From positions 3,732,738-3,796,737 of the forward strand of contig CP070727.1 of assembly GCA_020350885.1 (NCBI GenBank): 64,000 nt of DNA. Reading direction: 5' to 3'. The notes under the pieces were generated by a model. It did not search any database and had not been told where the DNA came from. It saw only the letters and a program-made list of their open reading frames with translations. The DNA comes from a bacterium (GTDB lineage: Bacteria > Krumholzibacteriota > Krumholzibacteriia > Krumholzibacteriales > Krumholzibacteriaceae). A program made the translations under genes and the position numbers. Below, in pieces: positions 2,325-55,646 of this stretch; the stretch's first letter is position 1; every line of letters begins with the position of its first letter.

Positions 2325-2876
2325 CTACAGATCTCTGTCCCGCAGAAAGGTACGCACGAACTCTTTGATCCTCTCGAGCTCGGACTCCACCGGAATCTCA
2401 TCGAGAAGTCCGGGAATCTGCTCCCTGTTGTCGAGGTATGCAATGAGGGGGCGCCCGTAGTGCAGGGCCAGGGCAACTTCACTCGCCGTACCGGCCGAGC
2501 CCGGCAGCGCTACGATCACATCGGAGCTCAGGACGTTTATATGGTTGCGTGACATCGGCTCCGTGCCTCGGTCACCGCGTAGAGGAAGATGCGTGAATAT
2601 TGGTACCTCCACCCATGGATTCGGATAGCCTTCGTGGGACTGCCCTCCCGTCTCCCCCGGATCAGCGGGAATGATACCGATCACGAGCCCCTTCCTCGGA
2701 GATACGAGGTGATACGCCCTGCTCACGCTTGTCATCACGCCGCCACCGCCTCCCGTCAGAAGATGCACGCCGAGTTCCGCCAGCCACACGCCGAGGCGCT
2801 CGGCCCGCTCGGTATGCGGCTCATTCCCCGAGCCCATTACACCGACGATCGGTAGTCTAACCTGTAATGGTATCAT
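2325..2876 (-). CDS. LOG-family / TIGR00725-type Rossmann-fold nucleotide-binding protein
   Basis: 183 aa; VGVMGSG and LTGGGGGVM glycine-rich motifs, PGSAGTASE resembling the LOG PGGxGTxxE motif. Confidence 0.55.
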   Translation of the reverse strand: MIPLQVRLPIVGVMGSGNEPHTERAERLGVWLAELGVHLLTGGGGGVMTSVSRAYHLVSPRKGLVIGIIPADPGETGGQSHEGYPNPWVEVPIFTHLPLRGDRGTEPMSRNHINVLSSDVIVALPGSAGTASEVALALHYGRPLIAYLDNREQIPGLLDEIPVESELERIKEFVRTFLRDRDL

Positions 2877-2910
2877 GATTACGTATATATATAGGAAACA
2901 GACGATCCGA

Positions 2911-3645
2911 TCAACCGTTCTCTCTCCGTTTCCATCCTATGTGGGCGGCCACGGCCCCGAACGTCATTCTGCGAAAACCGACATCCACAAATCCTGCCTC
3001 CTCGAGAATCCCGGTGAGCTCCTCGGCCCCGTAGAATCGCGGTATCGTGGCCGCGAGGTAGGCATAGGCGATGGTCGAACCCGATATCACCCGCCCGACC
3101 GCCCGCACAAACAGGCGGACATAGAGATGGAACAGCCACCTCACGAGCGGCGATGGAGGCTGGCTTGTCTCGAGATTCAGAAACATGCCACCCGGCTTGA
3201 GCACACGTCGGAACTCCCTGAAGCTGTGTATCAGGACACTCTCGCTGAGATTGATATTTCGTGTGGCAAAGGAGATCGTTACGAGATCGAAGGTGTCGTC
3301 AGGAAAGGGAAGGCCCTTGATGTCGGAAAGCACCGGCGTCACACCGTCCCCCCCTGGCTTCTGCCTGATACGATCGAGCATAGGCCGCACGAAATCTACC
3401 GCATAGACTCCCGTGCCCGAGGGGGCCGATCGCTTGAGATAGGCAGCGGTTTCCCCCGTTCCGCTGCATACATCCACCCACCGGTTCCCGCCCACCTGCA
3501 CGGCCATCCGAACCGCATTCCTGCGCCATAGGATATCGAGACCGAGTGTAAGGATGTGATTGACGATTTCGTAGGTGTGGGGTATCTCGGCGAAGATTCT
3601 CCTGATACTCGGTTCCATCCGCCCGTCACGCCCATCCCCGTTCAA
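2911..3645 (-). CDS. ubiE: Class I SAM-dependent methyltransferase, UbiE/MenG (demethylmenaquinone/ubiquinone C-methyltransferase) family
   Basis: YEIVNHILTLGLDILWRR (UbiE N-terminal signature YDxMNDxxSxGxHRxWR), SAM motif I VDVCSGTGE, motif post-I VYAVDF; true start may be the second Met (3618). Confidence 0.7.
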   Translation of the reverse strand: MNGDGRDGRMEPSIRRIFAEIPHTYEIVNHILTLGLDILWRRNAVRMAVQVGGNRWVDVCSGTGETAAYLKRSAPSGTGVYAVDFVRPMLDRIRQKPGGDGVTPVLSDIKGLPFPDDTFDLVTISFATRNINLSESVLIHSFREFRRVLKPGGMFLNLETSQPPSPLVRWLFHLYVRLFVRAVGRVISGSTIAYAYLAATIPRFYGAEELTGILEEAGFVDVGFRRMTFGAVAAHIGWKRRENG

Positions 3646-3655
3646 ACGGAACGGA

Positions 3656-4087
3656 TCACTTCTTCAGATCCCACCATCCGACCCAATTCACGTAAATGAC
3701 AGCCTTATGATACATGGTGTCGGGGCCATATAACAGCTTTTCCCACTGGTATTCGAAACCGAGCGTCGCAATGACACCGCCGGGACTGTACGTATCGAGC
3801 GATATCCCGACTCCGGGGGCGATCGCATTGTTCCAATCGTACTCCTCGATATCCCACTTGTAACGCAATACCGCATACGTGTTCAGCGTAGTGTTTCCAC
3901 TGCGCATCCAGTCGATCCCCTGCTTGAACCACCCGTTGAAGATAAGGTTGTCCTCGCCTTCCCGCGGCAGGTCCCACCTGAGTTCACCCCACGTGGAACC
4001 CCTGAATCCCTCGAAAGCTCGTGCCGTCCCGGTAACCGTTACGGAAAAAAGGAGCATAACGAGCAGCCCACATTGAATTAGCTTCAT
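3656..4087 (-). CDS. Small secreted hypothetical protein (signal peptide, Trp/Tyr-rich, possible beta-rich envelope protein)
   Basis: 143 aa ORF with N-terminal signal-peptide-like MKLIQCGLLVMLLFSVTVTGTARA; immediately downstream of the GT-C gene in the same orientation. Confidence 0.4.
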   Translation of the reverse strand: MKLIQCGLLVMLLFSVTVTGTARAFEGFRGSTWGELRWDLPREGEDNLIFNGWFKQGIDWMRSGNTTLNTYAVLRYKWDIEEYDWNNAIAPGVGISLDTYSPGGVIATLGFEYQWEKLLYGPDTMYHKAVIYVNWVGWWDLKK

Positions 4088-4090
4088 TGG

Positions 4091-5500
4091 TCAAATCCTC
4101 CCAAAGATCCGTGCACTGGTAACACCCCACGAATGCGTTATCGTGAAATCCTCGATCAGGGTGTACTCATTTTTTATACATGCTTCGTATTCCTCACATG
4201 GAAACTGATCTCCATAGAATTCCTCACATATGATAAAATCGACCTCTTCCTTGAATGCAGGGCCCGAATTCCCGCTGTCGGCTATGTCCGTGATATGCAT
4301 GTATCTGGCATGTGGATACTTATCCCCGAATGTATAGATCAGTACAACTCCGTCCCATCCGTTCAGGGCGACACGCATTCCGTCGAAACCGTTCTCATCG
4401 AAGAAATCTATGACCTGTGAGGAATCGGGGTACTGCCGTTCGAGCCATCTCAGGTTGTTGAAACCGTAAGCCCAGAAGACCACAAGCACAGCAACCGTGA
4501 AGAATGTGCGTGCGGTCCGGCTTGCGTTTCTCATCGAGAAGAGGTTGGCGATATGATCGACACCGAGTGCGGCGGCCGGTGCCAGAAACACGAGTGCATA
4601 TATCATATTCTTGTTCACCGACTGCTCCGAGCGGGTCATGAGATGCACAATGATGATCGGCGTCGAAAGAATGATGGAGAGTATCGCCGGAATCCCCCAC
4701 TTCTCGTGGAAGATGCCGAAGATCGCCAGAAGATACGCAAGCGAGACCCACCGGAGCGACCAATCGAGAAGCGTCGACAGCGGAAGCTGGGTCATACTGC
4801 GGGCGCTCTGCACTTGACCCACTATTTCGGCACGAGGTGCAAACGGGGCAAAAAGATAGTAGAGGAGCAGAAGAACGGCGACCGGAGCGATATACAGTAT
4901 CAGCGTTCTTCGAACCCCGTGCTTGAATACGGCATAGGCGAGGAAGAAGGGTATATAGACGGGAAGCAGATACTTTGTCACCGAGGCGATGAAGAGGATC
5001 ACAGCACCCTCGAGGAGCGCGAGATCCCTCCAGAGCTGCGAGCCGGCTCTGGTCGATACGACGAGCATGAGAAACGCCGTTCCGAGGAAGAAGGCGGCAA
5101 TCATATCGTACGTGGCAAGCTTCATAAGGTAGAGTGTCTGGCCGGAGAAGATAATGATCGTTGCGGCTATGAATCCGATCTTTTCGTCGAAGAGGAGCCG
5201 TGCCGTCAGAAAGGCGACGATCGCCAATGCCAGCCCGAAGAATGCATTCATGATCCTGGCGCCGTTGAGCCCTCCCATCGAATCCCCAAATGCCATGAAT
5301 ATCGGCTGAATGAAGACGGAACCGGTCATGTACGGACACCCCGGGCACGGCTCCCCGGCGAGGAGCTGCTGGCCGATGAGTATTGGAATCGCCTCATCCA
5401 TGTAAATCGAGTTGTAGTTCAAGTTCAGCACGGTGATCAGAAAGCCGTACATGAGCAGAACCAACAACAGATACCGGTATGTCGTTCCATTCCGTTTCAT
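4091..5500 (-). CDS. Polytopic GT-C-type glycosyltransferase (PMT/ArnT, family 39-like) membrane protein
   Basis: 469 aa, roughly 10 predicted hydrophobic helices, N-terminal DE-containing loop, overall architecture of dolichyl-phosphate-mannose/undecaprenyl-phosphate sugar transferases; start overlaps the stop of the upstream GT2 gene by 4 nt (5497-5500). Confidence 0.5.
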   Translation of the reverse strand: MKRNGTTYRYLLLVLLMYGFLITVLNLNYNSIYMDEAIPILIGQQLLAGEPCPGCPYMTGSVFIQPIFMAFGDSMGGLNGARIMNAFFGLALAIVAFLTARLLFDEKIGFIAATIIIFSGQTLYLMKLATYDMIAAFFLGTAFLMLVVSTRAGSQLWRDLALLEGAVILFIASVTKYLLPVYIPFFLAYAVFKHGVRRTLILYIAPVAVLLLLYYLFAPFAPRAEIVGQVQSARSMTQLPLSTLLDWSLRWVSLAYLLAIFGIFHEKWGIPAILSIILSTPIIIVHLMTRSEQSVNKNMIYALVFLAPAAALGVDHIANLFSMRNASRTARTFFTVAVLVVFWAYGFNNLRWLERQYPDSSQVIDFFDENGFDGMRVALNGWDGVVLIYTFGDKYPHARYMHITDIADSGNSGPAFKEEVDFIICEEFYGDQFPCEEYEACIKNEYTLIEDFTITHSWGVTSARIFGRI

Positions 5501-7716
5501 TCGTGATACAACGCCTTCGCCTTGTGGGCCAATTGCAGGATGTACTTTACACGCTCCGAATCCGGCTCCGACAGCCTGATACCGGCATAGTACTCGGGGT
5601 AGTTCTCGGATTGATGACGCACTGTCCGCACGACGGTCCCCATGAGCCGGATGTTACCTGTCTCTGGTGCAACCACGAGCTGCACCTGCTCCTCCGGCCG
5701 GTAATTCTCCTGCGCGGCGAGCAAGACACCGGTCGACGAGATATTCCGGATGACTCCAATCGATAAGCGATTGTTCCCCGATGAGAGCGCAACCGGCAGA
5801 TTCGCATAATGGCGCCGGGCGCGTCTCTTCCGCCTGCGGTGTTCCTCGAGTTGCCGCTCGAGAAATGTCCTGTACCGCTTCGAGTATTCCCTCAAGAATT
5901 TCACCAGTGCACCTTCGTGGAGGTAATGGGAGAGCTCGTCTCGGGCGGTTGTATCGATATTGACAAAGCGGAGACCCGTCCGCGAGATCAGGTGATTCGC
6001 CGCGGCGACGGTCTTCCCGTGCAGGAACACACAGTCGATGGAGACCTCCTTTTTCGGAAGCAGCACGGTGAGCCGGACAACCCGGTCGTCGGGAACCCTC
6101 CCGATCGAAAACAGTGAGATGCCGTATCGGGTCATGTTGTCGATGACCGCATACCGACCCGAATCCCGGCCACGGCCGGAATAGCTATAACGGACGGGAA
6201 GGGAATCCGGTATCCGGAAGATCTTTCTTCTCTGAAAGAGCTTCTTCCGCGCATAGAGGATGATCCCGATTGCCAGGCCGCTGTTGTAAAGAGCCCAGAG
6301 GCTGTTGACCACGATAATAAAATCATCATTACGTAACTGGAGAATCAGCTCGACGAGGGCCCATACAATCGCAACGATGCTGATAATGCATACCACGATC
6401 TGCGGGATCAGGAGCCGGTACGGTGCAAGGGATCGTTGTCCCTTTGGAGTTACTTTGAACTGTTTCGATTTCCGAGAGAATAGAAATGCCCCGAGCGTGC
6501 CGATATAGGTGACGAACTTGCCCATGCTGAACTGCTCGAGCAAGAGGTTGCCGCCGACACCGCGGCTCATCTCGTTGAACGCAAAGAGCGAGATCGTATA
6601 GTAGGGGATAAAGTGCAGAAGATAGTTGATATCGAGTGCCCGCATGGGCAGTATTCCCGTGATGAGCGCAATAGGCGGCGTGGCGTAAAAGATGAGCTTC
6701 TGAAAACCCTCGAGCGGATATATCAGGCTCTCGAGGTAACAGAGCCGCTGTGCAAAACTCATGCCCCTCATGAAGAGCGGATTCGCCCTGAAGAATACCT
6801 GCCAGCTCCCGATCCCCCACCGCATCCGCTGGATCTGAAAGGGATGTATGGTCTCGGCCGCTATTCCGTATGCCAGGACCTCGTTGTGATAGACCGATGA
6901 CCAGCCCTTGGAGTGAATCCGGACCGAAGTCAGGAGATCCTCGGTGACGGACTCGTGTGCGAATCCGCCGATATCATCGAGTGCCTTGCGCCTTATGATC
7001 GCACAGCTGCCGACGAAGTATGCCGCCTTCCAGTGATCACGGCCCGGCTGGATCAATGAATAGAAGAGGTACTGTTCGGCCCATATATATTTTTTCTTCG
7101 CATCCACCCGGTGCTGGAAGGAGTCGATATTGTAGTATTCCTGCGGTGTCTGAACGAAGGCGACTTCATCATCCCTGAAGTAGCCCAAGAGTTGGTCCAG
7201 AAAATGCGGCAACGGTGCGTGGTCGGCATCGAAGACGGCGACAAATTCGGCTTCCGAGTGCTCAAGCCCGAAGTTGAGGTTCCCCGCCTTTGCATGCTTG
7301 TGGGAGGACCGTGCGAGATGGATGCAACCCAGCTCCCCGCAGAGGTCCCTGACCTCTCGGCGGTTGCCGTCGTCGAGAACGATCGTGCGATGAGGGTACT
7401 TGAGATTATTGCAGGCAAGCAGAGTCTTTCTGAGGACATCGACCGATTCATTGACCGTGGGAATAAAGACATCTACCGTACGGCCGGGAAGCGGCTCGGG
7501 CGTCGTTCGCTCCTTCTGCTTCCAGACGACGAAATAGAGCAGGAAGGTGGAAAATGCCCCGAACACCTCCGCTACCCAGAGCGCCCAGGAGAACACCAGG
7601 GCGTTCGGGTTGAAGGTCTCCGTGATCCTCCAATAGAGGTAATAGACGGTCACTATGACCGCCACAATCGCAAAGACACGCCGTAGATGCTCAGCTCTTG
7701 ATGCATGCGTCTTCAT
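5497..7716 (-). CDS. bcsA: Cellulose-synthase-like processive GT2 glycosyltransferase with C-terminal PilZ (c-di-GMP-binding) domain, BcsA-like
   Basis: 739 aa; GT2 motifs DDG, DAD, QTPQ, QRMRW (QxxRW); multiple TM helices; C-terminal RRARR...IRNISSTGVLL matching PilZ RxxxR / DxSxxG signature. Confidence 0.75.
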   Translation of the reverse strand: MKTHASRAEHLRRVFAIVAVIVTVYYLYWRITETFNPNALVFSWALWVAEVFGAFSTFLLYFVVWKQKERTTPEPLPGRTVDVFIPTVNESVDVLRKTLLACNNLKYPHRTIVLDDGNRREVRDLCGELGCIHLARSSHKHAKAGNLNFGLEHSEAEFVAVFDADHAPLPHFLDQLLGYFRDDEVAFVQTPQEYYNIDSFQHRVDAKKKYIWAEQYLFYSLIQPGRDHWKAAYFVGSCAIIRRKALDDIGGFAHESVTEDLLTSVRIHSKGWSSVYHNEVLAYGIAAETIHPFQIQRMRWGIGSWQVFFRANPLFMRGMSFAQRLCYLESLIYPLEGFQKLIFYATPPIALITGILPMRALDINYLLHFIPYYTISLFAFNEMSRGVGGNLLLEQFSMGKFVTYIGTLGAFLFSRKSKQFKVTPKGQRSLAPYRLLIPQIVVCIISIVAIVWALVELILQLRNDDFIIVVNSLWALYNSGLAIGIILYARKKLFQRRKIFRIPDSLPVRYSYSGRGRDSGRYAVIDNMTRYGISLFSIGRVPDDRVVRLTVLLPKKEVSIDCVFLHGKTVAAANHLISRTGLRFVNIDTTARDELSHYLHEGALVKFLREYSKRYRTFLERQLEEHRRRKRRARRHYANLPVALSSGNNRLSIGVIRNISSTGVLLAAQENYRPEEQVQLVVAPETGNIRLMGTVVRTVRHQSENYPEYYAGIRLSEPDSERVKYILQLAHKAKALYHE

Positions 7717-11014: not shown

Positions 11015-11842
11015 TTACGGGACGACAAACTCCAGCTTGAATCCAAGCACTCCGTCGACATCATCGCTCAATACATCCTTCAGGTACAGCATGTAGAAAA
11101 TCCCCGGCCGCAAGGGAATTCCGGTGTACTGGGCCCCGAAGGCCAGTGAATGATAGAAGCGATCGCCGAAGTCGACGAAATCCCCGCTCAGCCATACGAG
11201 CCCTGTCAGTTCGAAGAGGAAGGCGAATCCCGAAGTACTCACCCCACCCGTGAGGCCGTAACGGGCGAACATATCCGTATCCCTGTACTCTTGATCCTCT
11301 GTAGGAATTAATATATTCGCACCGGCCTCGATCCCGAAAATGGCACCTTCCAGAGTATTGAAGCGCACCGATTGATTCACGTACGCCGTTAGGGTGTGTG
11401 GGATATATTTCTGAAATTCATGGTAGTTCGAAAACATCCCGATTATATTGGCATCCCACTTGTTCTCCCCTGCCGTTGGTATAAAAAGGCCGACTGTAAA
11501 AGCGGAGGTTCGTATGTCCGAACTCCCTATGTGTGCCTGCAGTCCGAGAAAGATGTTTCCGATACCGCTCTCGCGGTCCCAGCCCTCGGCCGCAATGGTG
11601 GAAAACGGAAGTGATGCGAGTATTGCGGTTGACGGGGATAACGGAAGGGTGAAAGAGAGATCGAAGGCGCCCGACATTGCTGAAAGGTCGACGCCATCAA
11701 CGGCTGGCCGCATGAACCGCACACCGATCCGTGGCCTGTCTCCTGCGATATCCCTCATGATGAACGACTGCGCCATCACGTGGGACGATCCCAGAAGTAC
11801 GGTGATGAACAGTGGTACGACGAGACAACGTACGGACTTCAT
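11015..11842 (-). CDS. Outer-membrane beta-barrel-like protein (hypothetical)
   Basis: 275 aa, signal peptide, alternating hydrophobic pattern, aromatic-rich C-terminus; last gene of polyphosphate operon. Confidence 0.4.
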   Translation of the reverse strand: MKSVRCLVVPLFITVLLGSSHVMAQSFIMRDIAGDRPRIGVRFMRPAVDGVDLSAMSGAFDLSFTLPLSPSTAILASLPFSTIAAEGWDRESGIGNIFLGLQAHIGSSDIRTSAFTVGLFIPTAGENKWDANIIGMFSNYHEFQKYIPHTLTAYVNQSVRFNTLEGAIFGIEAGANILIPTEDQEYRDTDMFARYGLTGGVSTSGFAFLFELTGLVWLSGDFVDFGDRFYHSLAFGAQYTGIPLRPGIFYMLYLKDVLSDDVDGVLGFKLEFVVP

Positions 11843-11861
11843 ACAAACCTCCCTGCAGGTG

Positions 11862-13478
11862 TTATTGACCCCCAGTGTCGCCTTTCCGATGCAATATGGT
11901 CAAGAGATTCCCGCTGGTCGAATCGGTATCGAACAATTTCCAGATCTCCACAAATTGTGCCTGCTTGGTGCGTGCGATCTCGCTCTGGAGCTGGTAGATC
12001 TCCCCGAGCATGAATAGCAGTTTCGGCTCCACCACCTTACCATCCCATTCAGAGCGGATGTAGTCGATGAAGTTGCGGGTGAATACGGTGTCCTGGAGCT
12101 CGCCGAGACAGTCCTGGATCTTTACCGTTTCCCGGATGAATTCCTGTAGGGCCTTCCCGTAGGCGGGAGATACGAACTCGCAGGCATAGCGGAGCTTCTT
12201 TACCTGGATCCTCAGATTGTGGAAGTTCTTCAGTTTCGGTTTCTCGATGACCTTCCGCCCCTGCTTCAATACCGACCTATGTTTCTCGAGTATTATCTCC
12301 GGGGCGCCGTCCTGCAACATGCGTAGAGCAAGCGGTGCTGCCGGGCGCTTCGGAAGCGGTCTTTTGATATAGGCCGACATCCGTGTGCGGAATCTCTTCA
12401 ACCTCTGTGATACGAGCGCATTCCGCAGGTTTTCGAGATGCACTGAGCGATGATCCGCGATCCAGTCTTCCAGTATCTTACGGTGCCTTGCGGAGGATGA
12501 TTCTATCATCTTCTCGAACTTGTTGAAGTTCAGGAGAAATACGTCCAGATCCCGTACATGACCGAAGACCGTTCCGAGCCACTTCAACTCGTTTGCAAAG
12601 AAGCCGGCCGTACCCTTGGGCAGCGTACCCTTGAAGAGCCTGAGCGCCGAGCGCATTCGCCTGGTCGAGACGCGGGCCTGGTGAACGAATTCCGTATCCA
12701 CATCCAGGTGAACTCCGGGCAGGTATTCTTCGAAGCGTTCCATATGGAACTGGAGTATCTTCTTAACGGCTAGATCGAACCGGTCGTCCAGCTTCACCCG
12801 CAATCTAGACGGTGGTCTCTTGGAGACGATGTGTACCTTCAGGCGCTCCATCGCCGTCTCGAGCTTGGATTGAGTCGAGGGAAGATACCCGAATTGCTGA
12901 ACGATGAGCTCGGATAGATCCCCGAGCGATTGTGGGAGCCCCTTCTTGAGCTCGGCCTCCATTTCGTACAGCCTCGGCACCTTTCGTCCCTTGTTGAATC
13001 CCTTCGCCAGGAAACTCGACACATCGAATGCCAGCTCGATTCGATCCCCCGAGGGGCACACGAGCTCGTAGAGCTGCCGGTTGGTTTTTATCAGTATCTG
13101 CTCCACGAGGCTGCGCGGATAAATCTGGTCGTAGACGAATTTCTTGATTTTCTTCGCAGTGATATCGGTTGGGGTGGTTACCGGTCTGCGGGATACTATC
13201 TCCATCTCGTGCCTATCGGCCAAACCCCTCTCCATCGAACCGATGCTTTTCAGTGTATATATCTCCTTGCCGTCCGATCGGCGCAGGCGGAGCGCGTAAT
13301 TGTTCCTGAACAGGGTCCACTCGAACGAGTCCATGTACAGATCCTCGTTGAGTACCTTTTTACCGAGCTTCAGGCGGTACCCCTTCGAATCAAGAAATCC
13401 GACTATCAATTGTTGTGCGTCCGGAACGGGGAGCTGCAGTTTCAGTTCGATTTCCCTCGCTCCTGGTTCACTCTTCAT
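11862..13478 (-). CDS. CYTH-domain (triphosphate tunnel metalloenzyme) + CHAD-domain protein
   Basis: 538 aa; N-terminal EIELKL (ExExK CYTH signature) followed by long helical His/Arg-rich region typical of CHAD; 4-nt overlap with the upstream metallophosphoesterase gene. Confidence 0.65.
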   Translation of the reverse strand: MKSEPGAREIELKLQLPVPDAQQLIVGFLDSKGYRLKLGKKVLNEDLYMDSFEWTLFRNNYALRLRRSDGKEIYTLKSIGSMERGLADRHEMEIVSRRPVTTPTDITAKKIKKFVYDQIYPRSLVEQILIKTNRQLYELVCPSGDRIELAFDVSSFLAKGFNKGRKVPRLYEMEAELKKGLPQSLGDLSELIVQQFGYLPSTQSKLETAMERLKVHIVSKRPPSRLRVKLDDRFDLAVKKILQFHMERFEEYLPGVHLDVDTEFVHQARVSTRRMRSALRLFKGTLPKGTAGFFANELKWLGTVFGHVRDLDVFLLNFNKFEKMIESSSARHRKILEDWIADHRSVHLENLRNALVSQRLKRFRTRMSAYIKRPLPKRPAAPLALRMLQDGAPEIILEKHRSVLKQGRKVIEKPKLKNFHNLRIQVKKLRYACEFVSPAYGKALQEFIRETVKIQDCLGELQDTVFTRNFIDYIRSEWDGKVVEPKLLFMLGEIYQLQSEIARTKQAQFVEIWKLFDTDSTSGNLLTILHRKGDTGGQ

Positions 13479-14209
13479 GGTGTTTCCCTCTTCTTATTCC
13501 CCTCGCTGAAATCCTTGAGCAAGCGATTCGGTAGCGATGAATTCTCGATGGCTGCAAGTACCTGCTCGACCGGGTACTCGAACCGAACGATTCGTGCGGA
13601 TGGCTTGGATGCTTTTTCAATACGTACGAGCGCATATGCAGGCCGGGGATCACCGTCGACCGGATGCCCGGCCGATCCACAATTAACAACCAGAGTGTTT
13701 GAAATCCTTTTCACAAAAGGAATATGTATATGCCCGCATACGAGGATGTGCGGCGGTTTGCAATTCATCTTTTTCCTCAAGGCGGCAGGGGTGATACTCG
13801 GTAGAATCGTGTCGTTCTCCGAGATCGGACTTCCATGGACCATCATGAGGTCCACACGGCCGTAGACTTGCTCCCGAAACGCCTCGGGAAGCTTTCCGAG
13901 GTATCTGCGTCCCTTTGCCCCGATCTGGTCCCGGGTCCAGTCGAGTATCTTCCATTTGTAGGGTTTCATCTTTTTTCGTAATGACTGCATTGCATTCTTT
14001 CCCCGGAGTAGCTTGCGGTCGTAATTGCCTATGACAGTCGGTATCCTGCGACTCTTTACAAAGTCTACAACCTCTGCGGGAAAGGGTCCGTATCCCGTTA
14101 GATCGCCTGCACAGAAGATTTTCCGTGCTCCCTTCGCCTTCGCATCCTTTACAGCCGCTTCGAGGGCGGGGTAATTCCCATGGATATCTGATACAATCGC
14201 AATCAGCAT
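13475..14209 (-). CDS. Calcineurin-like metallophosphoesterase (YfcE/MPP family)
   Basis: MLIAIVSDIHGN (DxH motif I), GDLTGYG (GD motif II), GNYD (GNH(D/E)-like motif III), VCGHIH (GHxH); start placed at MLIAIV (ORF track extends to 14275). Confidence 0.65.
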   Translation of the reverse strand: MLIAIVSDIHGNYPALEAAVKDAKAKGARKIFCAGDLTGYGPFPAEVVDFVKSRRIPTVIGNYDRKLLRGKNAMQSLRKKMKPYKWKILDWTRDQIGAKGRRYLGKLPEAFREQVYGRVDLMMVHGSPISENDTILPSITPAALRKKMNCKPPHILVCGHIHIPFVKRISNTLVVNCGSAGHPVDGDPRPAYALVRIEKASKPSARIVRFEYPVEQVLAAIENSSLPNRLLKDFSEGNKKRETP

Positions 14210-14799
14210 ACCTTGAATACGAGTTTCTTCCCTAGTTTCCGCTCCAGGAGCTGTGCCTTCCTCTCGGCACCCCACACTTCCGTATCACACCGCGTCTTGG
14301 TTTCCAGACATAATGTCACCTCGTCCCGTGAAATACGGCATGTGATATTCTGGACGCAATTGAAGTGACTCCGGTCGAGACCATCGGCGACACGCAGTAT
14401 ACCTGCGAGCCATTCTACGATGTTGCGCTTTTTCTGAGGGAGGGCGGCGAACGGTTTGTGCCGATCCGGATCGGGCTCCGCCTTTCGATGGAAACGCGCA
14501 ACGAGTGCGCATACCGCCCGGTCCGGCTCCGGCAGCCCGGGTATAACCGATTCCATGATCATATCGTAACTGTGCTTGTGATGCTTGCTCGTCATCGTAC
14601 GCGCCCAGCCGATATCATGGAGGAACGCCGCAATCCGGAGAAGATCCCGCTCATGCGTGCAGAATCGATGTAACTTTTGTAATCCGTCGAAAAGCACCAC
14701 CGCGAGCTTCGCCACCTGACTCGCATGATCCGGATCCGGATCGTTTCGTTCTGTGATATCGATGACCTTATCGAGAACCGTTCGATGCATCCCCGTCAC
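14203..14799 (-). CDS. HD-domain phosphohydrolase (resembles stand-alone C-terminal HD domain of Ppx/GppA)
   Basis: 198 aa; H...HD metal-binding pattern (HASQVAKLAVVLF ... AAFLHDIGW), later Asp; sits between ppk1 and metallophosphoesterase. Confidence 0.55.
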   Translation of the reverse strand: MTGMHRTVLDKVIDITERNDPDPDHASQVAKLAVVLFDGLQKLHRFCTHERDLLRIAAFLHDIGWARTMTSKHHKHSYDMIMESVIPGLPEPDRAVCALVARFHRKAEPDPDRHKPFAALPQKKRNIVEWLAGILRVADGLDRSHFNCVQNITCRISRDEVTLCLETKTRCDTEVWGAERKAQLLERKLGKKLVFKVC

Positions 14800-14858
14800 A
14801 ATCCCCGTTCAGCGGCTTCCGGCAAACGCCCCCCGGTATCGGCACGCTCACAAAAGAC

Positions 14859-17078
14859 TTACCGCTTTTTCTTCCGCCTTTTCTTTCCGATCCGCCGGAC
14901 GAGCTCCTCGTATGGAGGAGATTTCACTCCACCCTTTCTGGCAATCGCGATCAACCGCTCCTGGCTCCGAACCGTCCCGGTATCCTTATCCCGCTCCACC
15001 CTCACATAACTTCCGTCGGACTGCATGATCCTGGCCTTGGTATTATCACTGAGGTAGGTCATCAGGATCTCGTCTATGAGCCTCGTTTTGATCGTCGTGT
15101 CCTCTATAGGGTAGAGTATCTCGGCGCGCCGCTTGAAATTCCTCGGCATCCAATCGGCACTTCCCGAGAAGATTTCCGGCTCGCCCCCGTTGTGAAAGTA
15201 GTAGATCCTGGTGTGTTCGAGGAACCGGTCGAGGATACTGATCACCTTTATATGTTCGCTGATACCCGGAAGTCCCGGACGAAGACAGCATATGCCCCGA
15301 ACGATCAAATCGATACGCACGCCTGCCTGCGATGCCTTGTAGAGCATTCGAATCGTCTTCGCATCGACGAGCGCATTCATCTTTGCAATGATCCGACCTG
15401 GATTCTTCGGCTTGGATTTTGCAATCTCACGCTCGATCAATTGGTGTATCTTGAGCTGGGTGTTCACCGGGGATAGTGAAACCTTCTCGAACATGGAAAC
15501 GACGGTCTCCGGCTTGAACATCTCGCTGCCCGTCCATGAGTTGAAACCGGTGATAACGTTGAAGAGCGCCGAAACGTCGTTGCCGAATACCGGATCGGCT
15601 GTGAACAACCCCAAATCGGTGTACAGTTTCGCAGTTTCCGAGTTGTAATTACCGGTCGAGAGATGAACGTAACGGCGGAGGATCCGTCCTTCGCGTCTTA
15701 CAACCAGTGTCGCTTTACAGTGTGTCTTCCAGGTCACGAATCCATAGACCGGATTGACACCGACCTCCTCCATCTGCCGGGCGAAGTCGATGTTCGACTC
15801 CTCGTCGAAGCGCGCCTTGAGCTCGACAACAGCGGTCACCTGCTTTCCGCTCTCTGCCGCCCGCCGGAGTGCATGGATGACGGGCGAATCCTTATCGACG
15901 CGATAGAGTGTTTGCTTTATCGCAAGGACGTCGGGATCATCGGCGGCGGCATTGAGGAAATCAACCACGACTGCGAACGAATCGTACGGATGGTGCAGGA
16001 GGATATCCCCTTCACGGATCACGGTGAAGATATCCTTATCGGTATCGAAGCGCCTCGGGATGCGGGGATTGAATGGTGGATCCTTGTGTATCGGATCGAC
16101 GGGCAGGCTGTAGAGGTCCATAAACGACCTGAGATTGAGCGGACCGGGGATATGGTAGACATGTGCCCGGTCCATATCCAGCTGCTCACATAGAATATCC
16201 AGTATGCTGTCGGGAGCACCTTTCATTATCTCGAGTCGTACAGCGATCTTGTTTGATCTATCCTTGAGCTCTGCCTCGACCGATTTCAAGAGATCGCTCA
16301 CTTCATCCTCATGCAAGTCGTAATCCTGGTTCCTGGTAATCCTGAACGGCACTACACACTTGATCTTCATTCCTGGAAAGAGGCTACCGATGTTGGCCGT
16401 GATCAGATCCTCGAGAAGGATGAAATGATGACCCTTGAGCTTCTTGTTTACCGGAATCAGTCTCGGCAGCACCGTGGGTACTTCGACGAATGCATATGCC
16501 TTTGGTTTCTTGTTCTCGATGTATTCCTTGAAGACGACCATGAGGTTCAGCTTTAGATTAGCGAGGAATGGAAACGGGTGTCCTGCATCCACGGCAAGCG
16601 GTGTGAGAATCGGGAAAACCTGTTTCTTGAAATACGAATTGAGGCGCTGGATCTCCTTGGAATCGAGCGATGAAATGTCATGAATTTCGATTCCGGCCTT
16701 CTTGAGCTCCGTAAGCACGATTCGATTGAAACACCTGTACTGCTCATTGACGTACCTGCGCGACGTATCGAGAATCTCTCCGAGCTGCCGCATCGGTGTT
16801 CTCCCGCTTGAATCGGTGTCTTCGACATCGGCCTGAACGAGCCGGCAGAGTCCGCCCACGCGTACCATGAAGAATTCATCGAGATTGGAGCTGAAGATCG
16901 AAATGAACTTCACCCTGTCGAGTGCGGGGGTTGTGTTGTCTTCGGCCTCTTCGAGAACCCTGCGGTTGAATTCCAGCCAGGAAAGCTCGCGGTTTATATA
17001 CAACGAGGGATCCTTCAGGTTGATCTCGCCTTTCTTCTTGGAGGACTCAGTATCACCCTTGGCATTCATTACTGTCAC
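14859..17078 (-). CDS. ppk: Polyphosphate kinase 1 (PPK1)
   Basis: 739 aa; N-terminal LYINRELSWLEFNRRVLEEA, FISIFSSNLDEFFMVRV, and C-terminal PLD-like HxK regions characteristic of PPK1; size and order of domains match PPK1. Confidence 0.9.
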   Translation of the reverse strand: MTVMNAKGDTESSKKKGEINLKDPSLYINRELSWLEFNRRVLEEAEDNTTPALDRVKFISIFSSNLDEFFMVRVGGLCRLVQADVEDTDSSGRTPMRQLGEILDTSRRYVNEQYRCFNRIVLTELKKAGIEIHDISSLDSKEIQRLNSYFKKQVFPILTPLAVDAGHPFPFLANLKLNLMVVFKEYIENKKPKAYAFVEVPTVLPRLIPVNKKLKGHHFILLEDLITANIGSLFPGMKIKCVVPFRITRNQDYDLHEDEVSDLLKSVEAELKDRSNKIAVRLEIMKGAPDSILDILCEQLDMDRAHVYHIPGPLNLRSFMDLYSLPVDPIHKDPPFNPRIPRRFDTDKDIFTVIREGDILLHHPYDSFAVVVDFLNAAADDPDVLAIKQTLYRVDKDSPVIHALRRAAESGKQVTAVVELKARFDEESNIDFARQMEEVGVNPVYGFVTWKTHCKATLVVRREGRILRRYVHLSTGNYNSETAKLYTDLGLFTADPVFGNDVSALFNVITGFNSWTGSEMFKPETVVSMFEKVSLSPVNTQLKIHQLIEREIAKSKPKNPGRIIAKMNALVDAKTIRMLYKASQAGVRIDLIVRGICCLRPGLPGISEHIKVISILDRFLEHTRIYYFHNGGEPEIFSGSADWMPRNFKRRAEILYPIEDTTIKTRLIDEILMTYLSDNTKARIMQSDGSYVRVERDKDTGTVRSQERLIAIARKGGVKSPPYEELVRRIGKKRRKKKR

Positions 17079-17118
17079 TCCCCAGGTATACCACCTGCCT
17101 TGATCGGTCAGGCATTCT

Positions 17119-18669
17119 CTATTCCTTATTGTCCTTCTTTTTCTTTTGCTGCATCAATGATTCGAACTCAGGCAGTTTCCGAGAAACCACATCGTTAAAT
17201 GTCTCTATCACCTTGGTCCGTGAATACAACTTGTTGTTGGATTCGACGACCGTCCATGGTGCGTAGGTCGTCGAGGTTTTCTGAATCATATCCGCTACGG
17301 CCATCTCGTAATCTTCCCATTTCTCGCGGTTCCGCCAGTCCTCGTCGGTGATCTTCCACCGCTTGTACGACACACTTTCACGGCGTTTGAACCGCTTCAA
17401 CTGCTCTTCCTTGTCGATGTGAAGCCAGAACTTGATTATGACAAATCCGGAGTTCGTGAGCATCTTCTCGAATTCATTTATCTCCTTGTATGCCCGCTGC
17501 CACTCCTCGGTCGTACAGAACTGCTCGACGCGTTCCACGAGGACCCTGCCGTACCAGCTTCTATCGAATATCGTCAGAAATCCCGCTTTCGGAACATTCA
17601 GCCAAAAACGCCAGAGATAGTGGTGGGCCTTCTCCTCACGTGTCGGAGCAGGTGTCGTTACCACCTCGAACCTGCGGGTATCAAGAGGGGCCAGTAGCCT
17701 TTTTATGGCACCGCCTTTTCCGGCCGCATCCCAACCCTCGAAGACAATAATCGTTCCCACCTTATTGAGGAACATACCGTGGTGTACCCGCCGGGCGATC
17801 TTCTGTAGGTGGTCAAGTTTCTCCCTATACACATCCACCGTCAGCTTCTTTGACAGGTCGAACCGCTTGAGGAACCGCTCACTCTTGAGCACGATTGTCT
17901 TGTAGTTGTTCGGATCGACGGGAAGACCGTAGGAAGGTTTGATCTTCTTTTTTTTCTCGTACCTGCCGAGGGCCTCTTCCATCGCGTGAGCGAGGGTTTC
18001 ATAGATCTTGAGGCGTCCGAAATATTTGCATTCGGCCTCGACGATCGTCCACGGGGCTCTCGGGTTTGATGTCTTTTGCAGCATTTCCTCCACAGCGTCT
18101 GCGTATTTCTTGTACTTCTTGTTGTTGCTCCAGTTCTCCGGTTTGACTTTCCAGGATTCGAGTGGATCATTTTCCATCTTCCTGAGCCGGCTTTTCTGTT
18201 CCTTCTTGCTTATATGAAGCCAGAACTTGACCAGGACATAACCGTCTTCGATGAGTTGACGCTCGAAGGCGACTATATCGTCGAAGGCTTCCTTCCATTC
18301 TCGTTCCGGTATAACCTTCTCGACGCGTTCCACGAGCAACCGCCCGTACCACGATCTTATAAAGATACCTATGAATCCCCTGTGAGGCATTCTGATAGCG
18401 TACCGCCAGAGAAAGGGCCGCGCCTTCGCGTCCTCCTTCGGCGCACCGATAGCATACACCTTGAAACCTCTCGGATCGATGAGCCGCATCAAACGGTTCA
18501 CGGCGCCGTCCTTGCCGCTTGCATCCCACCCTTCGAAGACGACGACGATCGGGATACCCGCTTGGCGACAGCGCTGCTGCAGCTCATTGAGGCGGTGGCC
18601 CAGTGGTTCGAGAAGCTCGTGGTATTCCGCCTTGGCAAGACTCAACGATAAATCGACCTGTTCGAGCAT
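17119..18669 (-). CDS. Two-domain PPK2 (tandem polyphosphate kinase 2 domains; polyphosphate:AMP phosphotransferase-like)
   Basis: Two repeats of PPK2 core: VVFEGWDASGKDG / IVFEGWDAAGKGG Walker-A-like motifs each followed by FxRSWY and lid regions; start placed at MLEQV (18669); ORF track extends to 18798. Confidence 0.8.
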   Translation of the reverse strand: MLEQVDLSLSLAKAEYHELLEPLGHRLNELQQRCRQAGIPIVVVFEGWDASGKDGAVNRLMRLIDPRGFKVYAIGAPKEDAKARPFLWRYAIRMPHRGFIGIFIRSWYGRLLVERVEKVIPEREWKEAFDDIVAFERQLIEDGYVLVKFWLHISKKEQKSRLRKMENDPLESWKVKPENWSNNKKYKKYADAVEEMLQKTSNPRAPWTIVEAECKYFGRLKIYETLAHAMEEALGRYEKKKKIKPSYGLPVDPNNYKTIVLKSERFLKRFDLSKKLTVDVYREKLDHLQKIARRVHHGMFLNKVGTIIVFEGWDAAGKGGAIKRLLAPLDTRRFEVVTTPAPTREEKAHHYLWRFWLNVPKAGFLTIFDRSWYGRVLVERVEQFCTTEEWQRAYKEINEFEKMLTNSGFVIIKFWLHIDKEEQLKRFKRRESVSYKRWKITDEDWRNREKWEDYEMAVADMIQKTSTTYAPWTVVESNNKLYSRTKVIETFNDVVSRKLPEFESLMQQKKKKDNKE

Positions 18670-18845
18670 ATATTCCCGTGCCTCCCCTGGAATAGTGTTC
18701 GGTGAGCATCTTTCGGGCCAGCCTGTGGGAAGGATAAGATTATATGATATAACCTCATGGGCAGCAAGCATTAAGTTGGCAATGCATCCGGCCTCCATGT
18801 GATTTTTTTATCCAATATCGCAGGAAAATACTGCATCATTCGAAG

Positions 18846-18941
18846 AGAGCCCGCGTGTGTTGGGATTCCGTTAGGTTCAATCCCTCCCGTGCCAGATTCC
18901 GTTAGATAAGAGCCCGAGTGTGCTGAGATTTCGTTGAGCTT
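18846..18941. repeat. Imperfect tandem direct repeats (3 copies of GATTCCGTTAG-like core at about 31-bp spacing; two longer ~32-bp units AGAGCCCG(C/A)GTGTG(T/C)TG(G/A)GATT(C/T)CGTT(A/G)G) in the intergenic region upstream of the polyphosphate operon
   Basis: Direct reading: 18846-18877 vs 18909-18941 nearly identical; core at 18864, 18895, 18927. Confidence 0.6.
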
Positions 18942-19035
18942 ATGGAGTGTTTCTATCGGGCCCGAAAGGTATTATACTATAGAATGGAATTTGAATCATG
19001 TATCGCTGGGTACGATAGGAAGCGAGACTGCTGAC

Positions 19036-19203
19036 ATGGCAAAGTTGAAGGGCAAATCGCTATGCAAGATCGCCAGTAAAAAGCAATTCAAGAACAACAT
19101 TGATGACTACCGGAAATTGGTCAAACAGGCAAAGTATATCTGCCTGAAATGCGGTCGGGTTGCGAAAGCGAAGAAGAATCTGTGCGAACCCACTAAACTC
19201 TGA
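19036..19203 (+). CDS. Small Lys-rich protein with four Cys (possible zinc ribbon), hypothetical
   Basis: 55 aa MAKLKGKSLCKIASKKQFKNNIDDYRKLVKQAKYICLKCGRVAKAKKNLCEPTKL; embedded in a locally AT-rich patch; upstream part of track ORF 18934..19203 is probably non-coding. Confidence 0.3.
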   Translation: MAKLKGKSLCKIASKKQFKNNIDDYRKLVKQAKYICLKCGRVAKAKKNLCEPTKL

Positions 19204-19206
19204 GGT

Positions 19207-19824
19207 TTAGATCACCAGTCTCTCCAGCCAGAAGGGGAATCCGAAGGAATGAGATGAATCGAATGCAGGGGGCTCTGCCGCCGAGAACACGTGCTCGGCC
19301 ACCAGAAGGAGATTATCCTGAAGGACCTCCTCGCCTCCGTAGGCCTCGAATCCAATGGTCCACCACCTCCCGTCCCCGACCTCGATTGTCGTAAACTCGA
19401 GCTCGCATCCGCTTTCACACCACCGGCCGGCCTCAACGGCTCCGACCGAGCCGTCACCGGCGATCCGGTATCTTCTGAGCCATCGTCTCTTCCGCACCGC
19501 AATCCACAGCGGTCGTCCCGTTGCCGGTTCCAGGAACGGTTCCCCGGGATCGGCGAGTTCGTAACTCCACTTATACCATAGCTCGGGTTCGCCCCACACC
19601 GTTTCGTGAAAACGCCGCTCGCCGAACCGGTGCTGGCGTTGCTTCACCTCGATCCTCCCCTCGCGTAGCTTCAGGCCGAGTGAACCACCGCACCGTGTCC
19701 GGAGGTAGCAATCCGTACGGGTTTCCGGAGTGCCGGGAACGGGCTCTCCATGGAGAAACCACTCGAGGACTTCATCGGGTGCCGTTCCTTCCCGGAACCA
19801 TCTCACCTCCAGTGATGGAACCAT
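19207..19824 (-). CDS. Hypothetical protein (Trp/Arg/Glu-rich, no recognisable motif)
   Basis: 205 aa ORF in a coding-dense region, good codon usage for this genome; no family assignable by eye. Confidence 0.4.
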   Translation of the reverse strand: MVPSLEVRWFREGTAPDEVLEWFLHGEPVPGTPETRTDCYLRTRCGGSLGLKLREGRIEVKQRQHRFGERRFHETVWGEPELWYKWSYELADPGEPFLEPATGRPLWIAVRKRRWLRRYRIAGDGSVGAVEAGRWCESGCELEFTTIEVGDGRWWTIGFEAYGGEEVLQDNLLLVAEHVFSAAEPPAFDSSHSFGFPFWLERLVI

Positions 19825-39448: not shown

Positions 39449-39486
39449 TCTCTGAAACCGGATTGAAATATCACTCGAGGACAAGA

Positions 39487-40689: not shown

Positions 40690-40693
40690 GCTG

Positions 40694-41938: not shown

Positions 41939-42001
41939 CAGGCGAGAAGGGCCGGTATACCTCATACACACTGCGGATCCGGTACAGAAAGTGAACACGG
42001 T

Positions 42002-43132: not shown

Positions 43133-43171
43133 GTGAAGGACCGCGATGGGGATTCGATGCAAAGTCCCGCA

Positions 43172-44236: not shown

Positions 44237-44281
44237 GTCTATCAGTGTACCCTGTATCCGTGGGTAATCCGGACGATATCG

Positions 44282-52955: not shown

Positions 52956-53011
52956 ACGAATACACCTCCACCTCTTGTGCCACCGGGCTCACATTGTGAC
53001 GTTTCGGATGT

Positions 53012-53434
53012 CTATTCTGCGAACAACTTCTCTCGAGCGTCGTGTTTGAAGTTCTCCCCCGAGATCGTGACCTCGGTCGCAATGAAGTTGACATTAAAGT
53101 TGAAGTTGTCATCGTGCTCGGAAACGCTCGTGGCGATATCTGAAAACCAGGCCTTCGAGAAGGTAATGGTCTGAATTGCCTGGCCCTCCTTCTTGTCGTC
53201 ATGCCCCTTGAACACCGATATCTGCCCCTTGCCCTTCGCCTTGGCATTGGCATGCTGGGTCCTCGCAAAGTTGAAGAAATCCTTTGCGGGTGACGCCTTC
53301 GGGGGTATCTCCAGGGCTACGTTGATCGATCCCGGGATGCAATCGGCGAGCTGGTGGGCACCTGCGCTCTGTAGCGAAACGCTGAAGGCGTTTACCTTGT
53401 AAGTCTTGTTGTTCCATTTGAATTCGATGACCAC
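53012..53434 (-). CDS. hcp: Hcp/tail-tube-like protein
   Basis: 140 aa, size and position (between sheath-like and VgrG-like genes), beta-rich composition. Confidence 0.5.
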   Translation of the reverse strand: MVIEFKWNNKTYKVNAFSVSLQSAGAHQLADCIPGSINVALEIPPKASPAKDFFNFARTQHANAKAKGKGQISVFKGHDDKKEGQAIQTITFSKAWFSDIATSVSEHDDNFNFNVNFIATEVTISGENFKHDAREKLFAE

Positions 53435-53509
53435 GATTCAACCTCCTTTATAAACGATTAACGGTTACAATCGCTCCTGCGGTACGGACCGATACGAGCA
53501 GCCCACTCG

Positions 53510-55620: not shown

Positions 55621-55646
55621 GTGAAACCTCCAGCATTAATGCCGGC

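Follow-up and report, generated by a model that had tools for sequence, protein, structure and literature searches.

A putative polyphosphate-turnover operon in a member of the Krumholzibacteriaceae with an HD, metallophosphoesterase and CYTH-CHAD module at the ppx position

Six minus-strand genes of a polyphosphate (polyP) cluster lie together at positions 11015-18669 of the window, the whole 64,000-nucleotide stretch of DNA analysed here, and we consider it probable that they constitute one operon for polyP turnover in which an HD protein, a calcineurin-like metallophosphoesterase (MPE) and a CYTH-CHAD protein act as a granule-bound degradative module. Their sequences support reading the cluster as a variant form of the classical ppk-ppx operon, with an uncharacterised HD, MPE and CYTH-CHAD module at the position of ppx. 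The six genes and their domains had been proposed in a sequence-only reading, and all were recovered on this strand with Pfam and NCBIfam and, for the barrel protein, from homologues and a structural model:

11015..11842, minus strand: 12-strand outer-membrane beta-barrel (COG4313/FapF-like), 275 aa, with signal peptide (homologues, AF2 model)
11862..13478, minus strand: CYTH-CHAD protein of YgiF-type architecture, 538 aa (CHAD and CYTH Pfam matches)
13475..14209, minus strand: calcineurin-like MPE, 244 aa (PF12850, PF00149)
14203..14790, minus strand: stand-alone HD protein homologous to Ppx/GppA domain III, 195 aa (PF21447, PF01966)
14859..17069, minus strand: PPK1, polyphosphate kinase 1, 736 aa (four Pfam domains, TIGR03705)
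17119..18669, minus strand: two-domain class II PPK2 (polyphosphate:AMP phosphotransferase), 516 aa (PF03976, TIGR03708)

The range first given for this cluster, 11862-18798, takes in the five enzyme genes but leaves the outer-membrane gene outside. Intergenic gaps are of 19-68 nt and two junctions overlap, HD with MPE by 7 nt and MPE with CYTH-CHAD by 4 nt, where the CYTH-CHAD start and the MPE stop share ATGA. No terminator-like site was found within any gap of the six-gene cluster. A single operon is the best inference from these sequences because the genes share a strand, short gaps free of terminators and two overlaps, and because other phyla keep their order and overlaps. The five cytoplasmic products are all basic, with pI values of 9.0-9.9, and those of the genes flanking the cluster are acidic. 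When each ORF was searched separately the PPK2, PPK1, HD, MPE, CHAD and CYTH assignments held, with the Pfam scores of all five genes exceeding the curated cut-offs. Motif reading found the catalytic motifs of the five proteins intact, which suggests that the HD, MPE and CYTH-CHAD proteins are three hydrolases, as had been proposed.

The two kinases are the most readily assigned members. The PPK1 ORF (14859-17078, with an alternative start at GTG 17078) matches PF13089, PF02503, PF17941 and PF13090 at 134-238 bits each and TIGR03705 at 859 bits against a cut-off of 466, and its product is 65-72% identical over the full length to the PPK1 of related cassettes (68-80% for fragments at locus L082). 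Its translation carries WKTHCKATLV and RFLEHTRIYYF, the His motifs of two PLD-like C domains, and by comparison with E. coli PPK1 we take the histidines of KTHCK and FLEHTRIYYF to be the catalytic (autophosphorylation) residues. The PPK2 ORF (17119-18798) scores 515 bits with PF03976 in two stretches and 654 bits with TIGR03708, the polyphosphate:AMP phosphotransferase model, for which the equivalog cut-off is 548. Translation likely begins at ATG 18669, giving 516 aa, since GGGGAGG precedes this codon and the homologue at L081 has 506 aa; the ORF-maximal ATG at 18798 is probably too far upstream. In the C-terminal domain Walker A reads GWDAAGKGG and Walker B reads FDRSWY; the N-terminal domain has GWDASGKDG and FIRSWY, such that only the C-terminal domain retains the Walker B Asp; its loss from the N-domain is frequent in class II PPK2s (PMC11968564). 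Its two PPK2 domains, its TIGR03708 score above the cut-off and its N-domain without this Asp ally the protein with class II PPK2s such as Pseudomonas aeruginosa PA3455 (PDB 3czp), the sole notable difference from such enzymes being that its gene immediately precedes ppk1 within the same operon.

The ORF of the HD protein (14203-14799, with an alternative start at GTG 14799) matches Ppx-GppA_III (PF21447) at 68 bits and HD (PF01966) at 36 bits, and the family profile matches domain III of the solved exopolyphosphatase 8jgo at E = 1.6e-43. It was rejected as a full Ppx/GppA exopolyphosphatase, as ASKHA domains I-II (PF02541) are absent, leaving PF21447 and HD as the only matches, and the NCBIfam PPX and GppA models match it by their C-terminal parts only (25-28 bits against cut-offs of 624-864). 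The catalytic site of PPX and GppA lies in the ASKHA domains. Domain III of PPX does not form this site but has a part in binding polyP and in processivity, and the HD protein could accordingly lack catalytic activity. It might then be a polyP-binding or regulatory adaptor, as domain III is in PPX, leaving MPE and CYTH as the only enzymes. PPX domain III indeed provides its best structural relatives, and the HD unit of an HTH-HD-CHAD fusion in Anaerolineae (L013) has lost the His/Asp set. We nevertheless regard a purely adaptor role as improbable. H22, H58, D59, H70, K72, R99, H101, D136, D139 and H142 are invariant in 21 divergent stand-alone members, and the H..HD..H..H..D set among them (H22, H58-D59, H70, H101, D136) is also kept in MPE-HD fusions, whereas the PPX domain III sequences compared carry HE instead and one has RVANALD. 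H22, H58-D59 and D136 correspond to the H...HD...D metal motif of HD phosphohydrolases. Furthermore, a stand-alone HD in Phycisphaerae adjoins a full PPX with its own domain III, beside which a mere extra copy would be redundant. Stand-alone HD genes lie within polyP clusters in four of the five independent contexts examined, that of Phycisphaerae among them.

The MPE ORF (13475-14275) matches Metallophos_2 (PF12850) at 91 bits and Metallophos (PF00149) at 46 bits, and the start is most likely ATG 14209 (MLIAIVSDIHGN), which overlaps the HD stop. All the expected motifs were found (D8-x-H10, G35-D36, G61-N62-Y63-D64, H125 and G159-H160-x-H162), and the metal ligands D8, H10, D36, N62, H125, H160 and H162 are invariant in 25 sequences. 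Motif III reads GNYD, with Tyr in place of His; distant relatives have Thr or Ile at this position, and active YfcE-type enzymes have Cys. Membership of the YfcE family of phosphodiesterases (TIGR00040) was considered, and at 51.9 bits against a cut-off of 56.25 the protein is related to that family but not part of it. Among solved structures it is nearest to 3rqz, 2gju/1nnw and 3qfm, and it matches ApaH weakly. The characterised proteins most similar to it in sequence are not polyphosphatases but Ap4A/ATP hydrolases, namely 3qfm, presumably of this function, and ApaH. The protein has a pI of 9.9 and a 48-residue insert with 16 Lys/Arg residues against three Asp/Glu.

In the CYTH-CHAD protein the CHAD domain (PF05235) scores 181 bits and the CYTH domain (PF01928) 41.7 bits against a cut-off of 23.2. 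Five orthologues all keep the ExExK motif (E9, E11, K13) and the tunnel residues R64, R66, K77, E91, E93, R134, E148, E172, E174 and E176 unchanged. The CHAD part, which has a pI of 9.9, aligns over residues 224-521 with chain 6qv7 (E = 8e-27), a structure deposited under the name 'CHAD domain'. Escherichia coli YgiF, a CYTH-CHAD inorganic triphosphatase (PDB 5a60/5a61), shares the two-domain architecture, the ExExK tunnel motif and the C-terminal CHAD; there was no direct YgiF match in a PDB search at E < 0.01 and, unlike YgiF, the protein described here is encoded by a gene translationally coupled to an MPE in a ppk operon. CHAD is a polyP-binding domain found in polyP operons, and linkage of CHAD genes to polyP kinase or phosphatase genes has already been described (bioRxiv 10.1101/567040). 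The CHAD 'phosins' and stand-alone CHAD proteins of R. eutropha, Chlorobium tepidum and Streptomyces (PptA) are similarly encoded in polyP operons, to which the present cluster adds a link with an MPE and a stand-alone HD of which the literature searched gave no example.

Three further features of the window lie outside the six genes:

3-968, minus strand: alkaline phosphatase, cut by the window edge (PF00245, 259 bits)
18670..19035, no strand: upstream non-coding region, common to a divergent small ORF (repeat search, sequence reading)
19207..19824, minus strand: triphosphate-tunnel (TTM/CYTH) fold protein, 205 aa, no Pfam match

The alkaline phosphatase noted earlier at the window start is a genuine gene but is not linked to the cluster, from which it is separated by about 10 kb and by unrelated genes on both strands. 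The operon promoter presumably lies within 18670..19035, a region that holds a 34-nt direct repeat (18839-18872 and 18902-18935) and two exact copies of the 11-mer GATTCCGTTAG. A plus-strand ORF of 55 aa separates the gene for the TTM-fold protein from the operon downstream of it, and this protein is possibly an accessory one and not an operon member. At the other end, the barrel gene lies 19 nt downstream of CYTH-CHAD with its own AGGGAGG and is probably co-transcribed with the cluster. Its product has no direct Pfam match; its outer-membrane character, also anticipated from the sequence, is borne out by the signal peptide, by homologues that carry PF13557 or are named 'transporter', and by a confident AF2 model (pLDDT 81) with about 12 long strands, which among PDB entries is closest to FapF (5o68) and to the COG4313 channel 4rl8 (TM about 0.64). 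Since homologues at loci L170 and L171 have no polyP genes beside them, the barrel is a local passenger and not a conserved cassette member.

Comparison across genomes showed that the gene order from PPK1 to CYTH-CHAD and its overlaps recur in Smithella and in metagenome contigs. PPK1-HD-MPE-CYTH-CHAD with identical 7-nt and 4-nt overlaps is present in Smithella (Syntrophales; L086/L087) and at L082, and the order also at L091. L081 has PPK2x2-PPK1-HD-MPE, with a two-domain PPK2 again upstream of PPK1, and L088/L089 have MPE-CYTH-CHAD-PPK1. CYTH-CHAD lies directly 3' of MPE in nine of ten related loci (MPE at least 47% identical, downstream sequence present). In Anaerolineae a two-domain PPK2 adjoins PPK1, and at L022 the arrangement is PPK2-PPK1-[MPE-HD fusion]-CHAD, the CHAD standing alone; a further MPE-HD fusion occurs in P0113. 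The CHAD-HD-PPX-PPK1-PPK2 operon of Phycisphaerae (L172-L174) resembles the cluster in its stand-alone HD family (39-45% identity), in an HD gene that overlaps that for CHAD and in adjoining PPK1 and PPK2, but it keeps a canonical PPX, lacks MPE, and has a CHAD without CYTH and a single-domain PPK2. Some loci have only one of HD and MPE, in either direction (L083, L084, L088, L172), and the two are therefore not an obligate pair. By sequence comparison, then, the HD, MPE and CYTH-CHAD genes are a cassette recurring beside polyphosphate kinase genes in several phyla. The cluster had been described as an unusually complete polyP module; all of its parts are present, but its uniqueness was overstated.

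It could be argued that the genes adjoin by chance or recent shuffling and that only PPK1 and PPK2 work as a unit. The barrel gene is clearly a local addition, and gene loss is seen at L001, to which none of the other species-representative genomes scanned is preferred as closest relative, and which has no HD and retains MPE and PPK2 as fragments only. This explanation is already disfavoured and we give it very little weight, given the conservation of order and overlap lengths across phyla, the fusions that join the parts, and the distant MPE relatives (29-37% identity), of whose 39 loci 21 have a PPK2 on the same strand no more than 2.5 kb downstream. Relatives in the same identity range have CHAD within 6 kb upstream in nine of 26 loci.

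A more serious alternative, although still an unlikely one, is that the HD, MPE and perhaps CYTH enzymes act not on polyP chains but on nucleotides such as (p)ppGpp, Ap4A, or nucleoside tetra- or pentaphosphates from PPK2 side reactions, with CHAD merely placing them at the granule. Enzymes of the PPX/GppA family have a C-terminal part homologous to the HD protein, the presumed function of 3qfm and the weak ApaH matches point to Ap4A/ATP hydrolysis, and PPKs reportedly produce oligophosphorylated nucleotides, according to the title of one paper (PMC7595981). However, the HD protein is without the domains that house the GppA/PPX catalytic site, the fusions of HD with CHAD and of MPE with HD and the presence of CHAD nearby indicate the polymer itself, and the strongly basic MPE with its Lys/Arg-rich insert fits a polyanion. 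The substrate of YgiF-type CYTH domains is, moreover, inorganic triphosphate, and YgiF cleaves tripolyphosphate (PMC6973038).

We therefore return to polyP turnover as the preferred function. PPK1 would make polyP out of ATP and PPK2 would use it to convert AMP to ADP, two steps that are well supported by sequence. The translationally coupled HD, MPE and CYTH-CHAD proteins would carry out degradation at the granule, with CHAD anchoring the complex on polyP, the MPE cutting the chains with the aid of the HD protein, and the CYTH tunnel disposing of short chains, tripolyphosphate among them. The HD protein may be a polyP-binding partner, a second metal-dependent hydrolase, or both. As in the E. 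coli ppk-ppx operon, (predicted) polyP-degrading functions come after PPK1 on its own strand, including a homologue of PPX domain III, but ASKHA (Ppx-GppA) domains are missing from the cluster, the three-gene module lies downstream and a class II PPK2 upstream.

No characterisation of this cassette was found in the literature searched. It is conceivable, though we hold it only tentatively, that the CHAD-tethered MPE and HD represent a new bacterial polyphosphatase, possibly an endopolyphosphatase, unrelated to PPX, that the stand-alone HD family is a branch of PPX domain III with catalytic activity, and that together they provide a widespread means of degrading polyP without PPX. Polyphosphatases of the metallophosphatase type include Ppn1 and Ppn2 of yeast and human ACP5 (PMC6973038; PMC7381174). 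They are eukaryotic, the yeast enzymes being vacuolar, and are akin to the MPE only at the level of the calcineurin-like or PPP-type metallophosphatase superfamily. If the MPE does cleave polyP in this way, the bacterial MPE and HD would take the place in prokaryotes that Ppn1 and Ppn2 have in yeast, and PPX-independent polyP breakdown would be widespread in anaerobes such as the Syntrophales and Anaerolineae.

The locus is almost certainly an operon for the turnover of polyphosphate (polyP). Positions 11015 to 18798 hold six consecutive ORFs, all on the minus strand, and Pfam bore out every domain call that the sequence-only reading had made for PPK2, PPK1, HD, metallophosphoesterase (MPE) and CYTH-CHAD. 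In order of transcription they are:

Start at 18669 (the most likely ATG, preceded by GGGGAGG), minus strand: PPK2, 516 aa (506 aa in the homologue at L081, a compared locus)
Start at 17069 or 17078, read from the sequence, minus strand: PPK1, after a gap of about 40-49 nt
Start at 14790 or 14799, likewise, minus strand: stand-alone HD protein, 195 aa, after a gap of 59-68 nt
Start at ATG 14209 (MLIAIVSDIHGN), minus strand: calcineurin-like MPE, 244 aa, overlapping the HD stop by 7 nt
Start within an ATGA overlap with the MPE stop, minus strand: CYTH-CHAD protein
11015-11842, minus strand: outer-membrane barrel gene, 19 nt downstream of CYTH-CHAD, with its own AGGGAGG

Consensus scans for sigma-70 promoters and terminators returned no more sites than in shuffled sequence and none in any intergenic gap. 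Because the gaps hold no such promoter- or terminator-like site, one transcript across the operon would be the best inference. In scans for Rfam families and tRNAs the window gave no match. Upstream, a 34-nt direct repeat occurs twice at 18839-18935 (79% identical, 63-nt spacing), and the same region contains two copies of an exact 11-mer, GATTCCGTTAG, at 31-nt spacing. Both elements, 170-265 nt ahead of the PPK2 start, are candidate operator sites, which we take to be unlike the E. coli Pho box. Divergent from the operon is a plus-strand ORF of 55 aa (19036-19203; MAKLKGKSLCKIASKK...YICLKCGRVAKAKKNLCEPTKL), rich in Lys and with several Cys, which separates it from the gene for a protein of 205 aa (19207..19824, minus strand). 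This protein has no Pfam match and its profile comparison with the CYTH alignment was negative; its triphosphate-tunnel (TTM) fold was seen by structure comparison only. The family numbers about 1,950 representative clusters. A homologue adjoins the equivalent gene cassette at one compared locus, L001, and at none of the other loci with such a cassette, so the link of the TTM-like protein to polyP is weak.

The sixth gene had been read as encoding an outer-membrane protein, and a signal peptide and a confident 12-strand barrel model agree with this. The ORF has no Pfam match, its homologues carry PF13557 or bear the name 'transporter', and among solved structures the model best matches FapF and the COG4313 channel 4rl8. 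The reading that this protein is a porin specific for polyP or phosphate and a member of the cassette was rejected, as the homologues occur in unrelated neighbourhoods and channels of the FapF and COG4313 kinds are its relatives in fold. The sequence-only reading was also right about the alkaline phosphatase, a PF00245 protein (259 bits) with a signal peptide, whose gene (3-968, minus strand) is truncated by the window start. It was excluded as a part of the module, lying some 10 kb from the operon with unrelated genes between. Other features of the window are:

5497-7716, minus strand: BcsA-like member of glycosyltransferase family 2 with PilZ as its C-terminal domain (c-di-GMP-regulated polysaccharide synthase type)
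39463-46081: split lanthipeptide-synthetase-like set, comprising a Pfam-less ORF, a protein with a Ser/Thr kinase domain and a LanC-like cyclase, with HlyD and an ABC exporter on the opposite strand
51447-57923: VgrG-like protein (Phage_GPD, Phage_base_V) and ClpV/ClpB-type double AAA ATPase among several Pfam-less ORFs, possibly a cluster for type VI secretion or contractile injection

PPK1 has all four PPK1 domains in Pfam and belongs to the NCBIfam equivalog TIGR03705. PPK2 matches Pfam over two stretches (515 bits) and, at 654 bits, exceeds the cut-off of 548 for TIGR03708, the NCBIfam equivalog for polyphosphate:AMP phosphotransferase. The C-terminal domain of PPK2 has the motifs GWDAAGKGG and FDRSWY. 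The N-terminal domain reads FIRSWY and thus lacks the Walker B Asp, a loss that is frequent in class II PPK2 N-domains, which are thought to be non-catalytic (PMC11968564). As it has genes for both PPK1 and a class II PPK2, the operon is predicted from its sequence to be able both to build polyP from ATP and to spend it on the phosphorylation of AMP. Together, PPK1 and polyP:AMP phosphotransferase regenerate ATP from AMP in vitro, and their pairing suggests a role as an energy buffer.

The Pfam matches of the HD protein are to Ppx-GppA_III and HD. Its family profile matches domain III of solved exopolyphosphatases (8jgo, E = 1.6e-43; E. coli PPX, 1e-15). The ASKHA domains (PPX domains I-II, PF02541) are absent, so that the protein lacks the defining feature of PPX and is instead homologous to the non-ASKHA half of that enzyme. 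Homology to a PPX domain would suit a non-catalytic adaptor. However, H22, H58-D59, H70, K72, R99, H101, D136, D139 and H142 are invariant in the 21 members of the HD family, and this set is lost in the PPX domain III sequences compared: the dyad position is HE in both aligned PPX sequences, and the PPX encoded beside a stand-alone HD at L084 also has HE, plus RVANALD. An adaptor is further disfavoured by the Phycisphaerae-type clusters, in which a stand-alone HD adjoins a full PPX.

The MPE matches Metallophos_2 and Metallophos and scores below the YfcE-family cut-off. Its ligands D8, H10, D36, N62, H125, H160 and H162 are invariant among 25 close and distant relatives, and motif III reads GN[Y/T/I]D, not GNHD. 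A 48-residue insert has 16 K/R against 3 D/E, and all five cytoplasmic products of the operon are basic (pI 9.0-9.9), the flanking genes encoding acidic ones. In the CYTH-CHAD protein (CHAD 181 bits, CYTH 42 bits) neither the E9-x-E11-x-K13 motif nor the Arg, Lys and Glu residues of the tunnel vary among five orthologues. It is conceivable that HD and MPE act on nucleotides such as pppGpp, Ap4A or nucleoside oligophosphates, as the nearest characterised relatives of the MPE are 3qfm and ApaH; the charge pattern, and fusions with CHAD in other genomes, count against such substrates.

Contexts gathered through HD and MPE homologues indicate that the window copy is one member of a recurrent, widely conserved cassette. 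The order PPK1-HD-MPE-CYTH-CHAD is found in Smithella (L086/L087), where the overlaps of 7 nt and 4 nt exactly match those of the window, at L082 with the same overlaps, and at L091. Variants are PPK2-PPK1-HD-MPE with a two-domain PPK2 (L081), MPE-CYTH-CHAD-PPK1 (L088/L089) and, on the short contigs L090, L092 and L093, MPE-CYTH-CHAD. Ten related loci encode a close MPE (at least 47% identity) with downstream sequence present, and in nine of them CYTH-CHAD directly follows MPE. An Anaerolineae locus (L022) reads PPK2, PPK1, an MPE-HD fusion of 474 aa (2788-4212) and CHAD, and the compared protein P0113 is a second such fusion. Another Anaerolineae locus (L013, 7170-9083) encodes an HTH-HD(degenerate)-CHAD fusion, suggestive of a polyP-sensing transcription factor, beside PPK2, PPK2 and PPK1; MPE and an HD-like gene lie on the opposite strand. 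Phycisphaerae and a related lineage have CHAD-HD-PPX-PPK1(-PPK2) clusters in which the gene for the stand-alone HD abuts the CHAD gene or overlaps it. Of the five independent HD contexts, four include polyP genes and one (L083, Sumerlaeia) does not. For distant metagenomic MPE relatives (29-37% identity), 39 loci have enough flank, and in 21 of these a PPK2 lies on the same strand no more than 2.5 kb downstream; CHAD lies within 6 kb upstream in 9 of 26; one locus (L148) has PLD-MPE-x-PPK2 opposite ParA-CHAD. This conservation excludes a chance neighbourhood for the five cytoplasmic genes, and we accept one for the barrel gene, given the unrelated contexts of its homologues.

The MPE cassette occurs in Syntrophales, Anaerolineae and the lineage of the window, and the HD family in these and Phycisphaerae. 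Large secreted proteins of the window (26802-29741, 30590-34636 and 35041-37296) carry T9SS C-terminal sorting (Por_Secre_tail) and/or FlgD_ig domains, which hints at an FCB-group organism, whereas the sequences nearest to its PPK1 (66-72%) bear the labels delta proteobacterium or Smithella; the cassette may thus have been horizontally transferred. Among the scanned species-representative genomes the closest PPK1 is that of L001 ('delta proteobacterium', 72% identical), all others being at 51% or below. At L001 (9773-12631) the PPK2 is a remnant of 42 aa, the MPE is truncated and the HD gene is absent, reflecting either cassette decay or assembly indel errors.

We infer that HD, MPE and CYTH-CHAD probably form a functional unit acting on polyP, because they are translationally coupled, keep their order and overlaps across phyla and are fused pairwise in other lineages. 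The inference also draws on what is known of the parts: CHAD, a module established as binding polyP, occurs in polyP operons (10.1101/567040), YgiF-type CYTH cleaves tripolyphosphate (PMC6973038), and the metallophosphatase superfamily includes the proven polyphosphatases yeast Ppn1 and Ppn2 and human ACP5 (PMC6973038, PMC7381174). In our working model CHAD would anchor the unit to polyP, MPE would cut the chain, HD could serve as a polyP-binding partner and/or second metal-dependent hydrolase, and the CYTH domain would clear short products. As a whole we consider this model somewhat more probable than its alternatives taken together; for a polyphosphatase role of HD and MPE themselves the chances appear evenly balanced.

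PPK1, class II PPK2, YgiF-type CYTH-CHAD and the link of CHAD to polyP genes are already established. The CYTH and CHAD domains were reportedly first described in a 2002 paper. In the literature searched, of which coverage was incomplete, neither the MPE family nor the stand-alone HD family was tied to polyP, CHAD or PPK operons. What we rate as new is an apparent ppk operon in which an uncharacterised HD, MPE and CYTH-CHAD module takes the position that ppx has in the classical ppk-ppx operon. Bacterial polyP synthesis is well understood; to our knowledge, breakdown is credited almost wholly to PPX/GppA-type enzymes and PPK reversal, and bacterial endopolyphosphatase activity is still poorly defined. 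The locus contradicts nothing in this understanding, and the candidates it offers for polyP breakdown independent of PPX are well defined and inexpensive to test. If HD and MPE are polyphosphatases, they would constitute a second degradative route for bacterial polyP, would explain how polyP is mobilised in cassette-bearing genomes, and would be concrete candidates for bacterial endopolyphosphatase activity.
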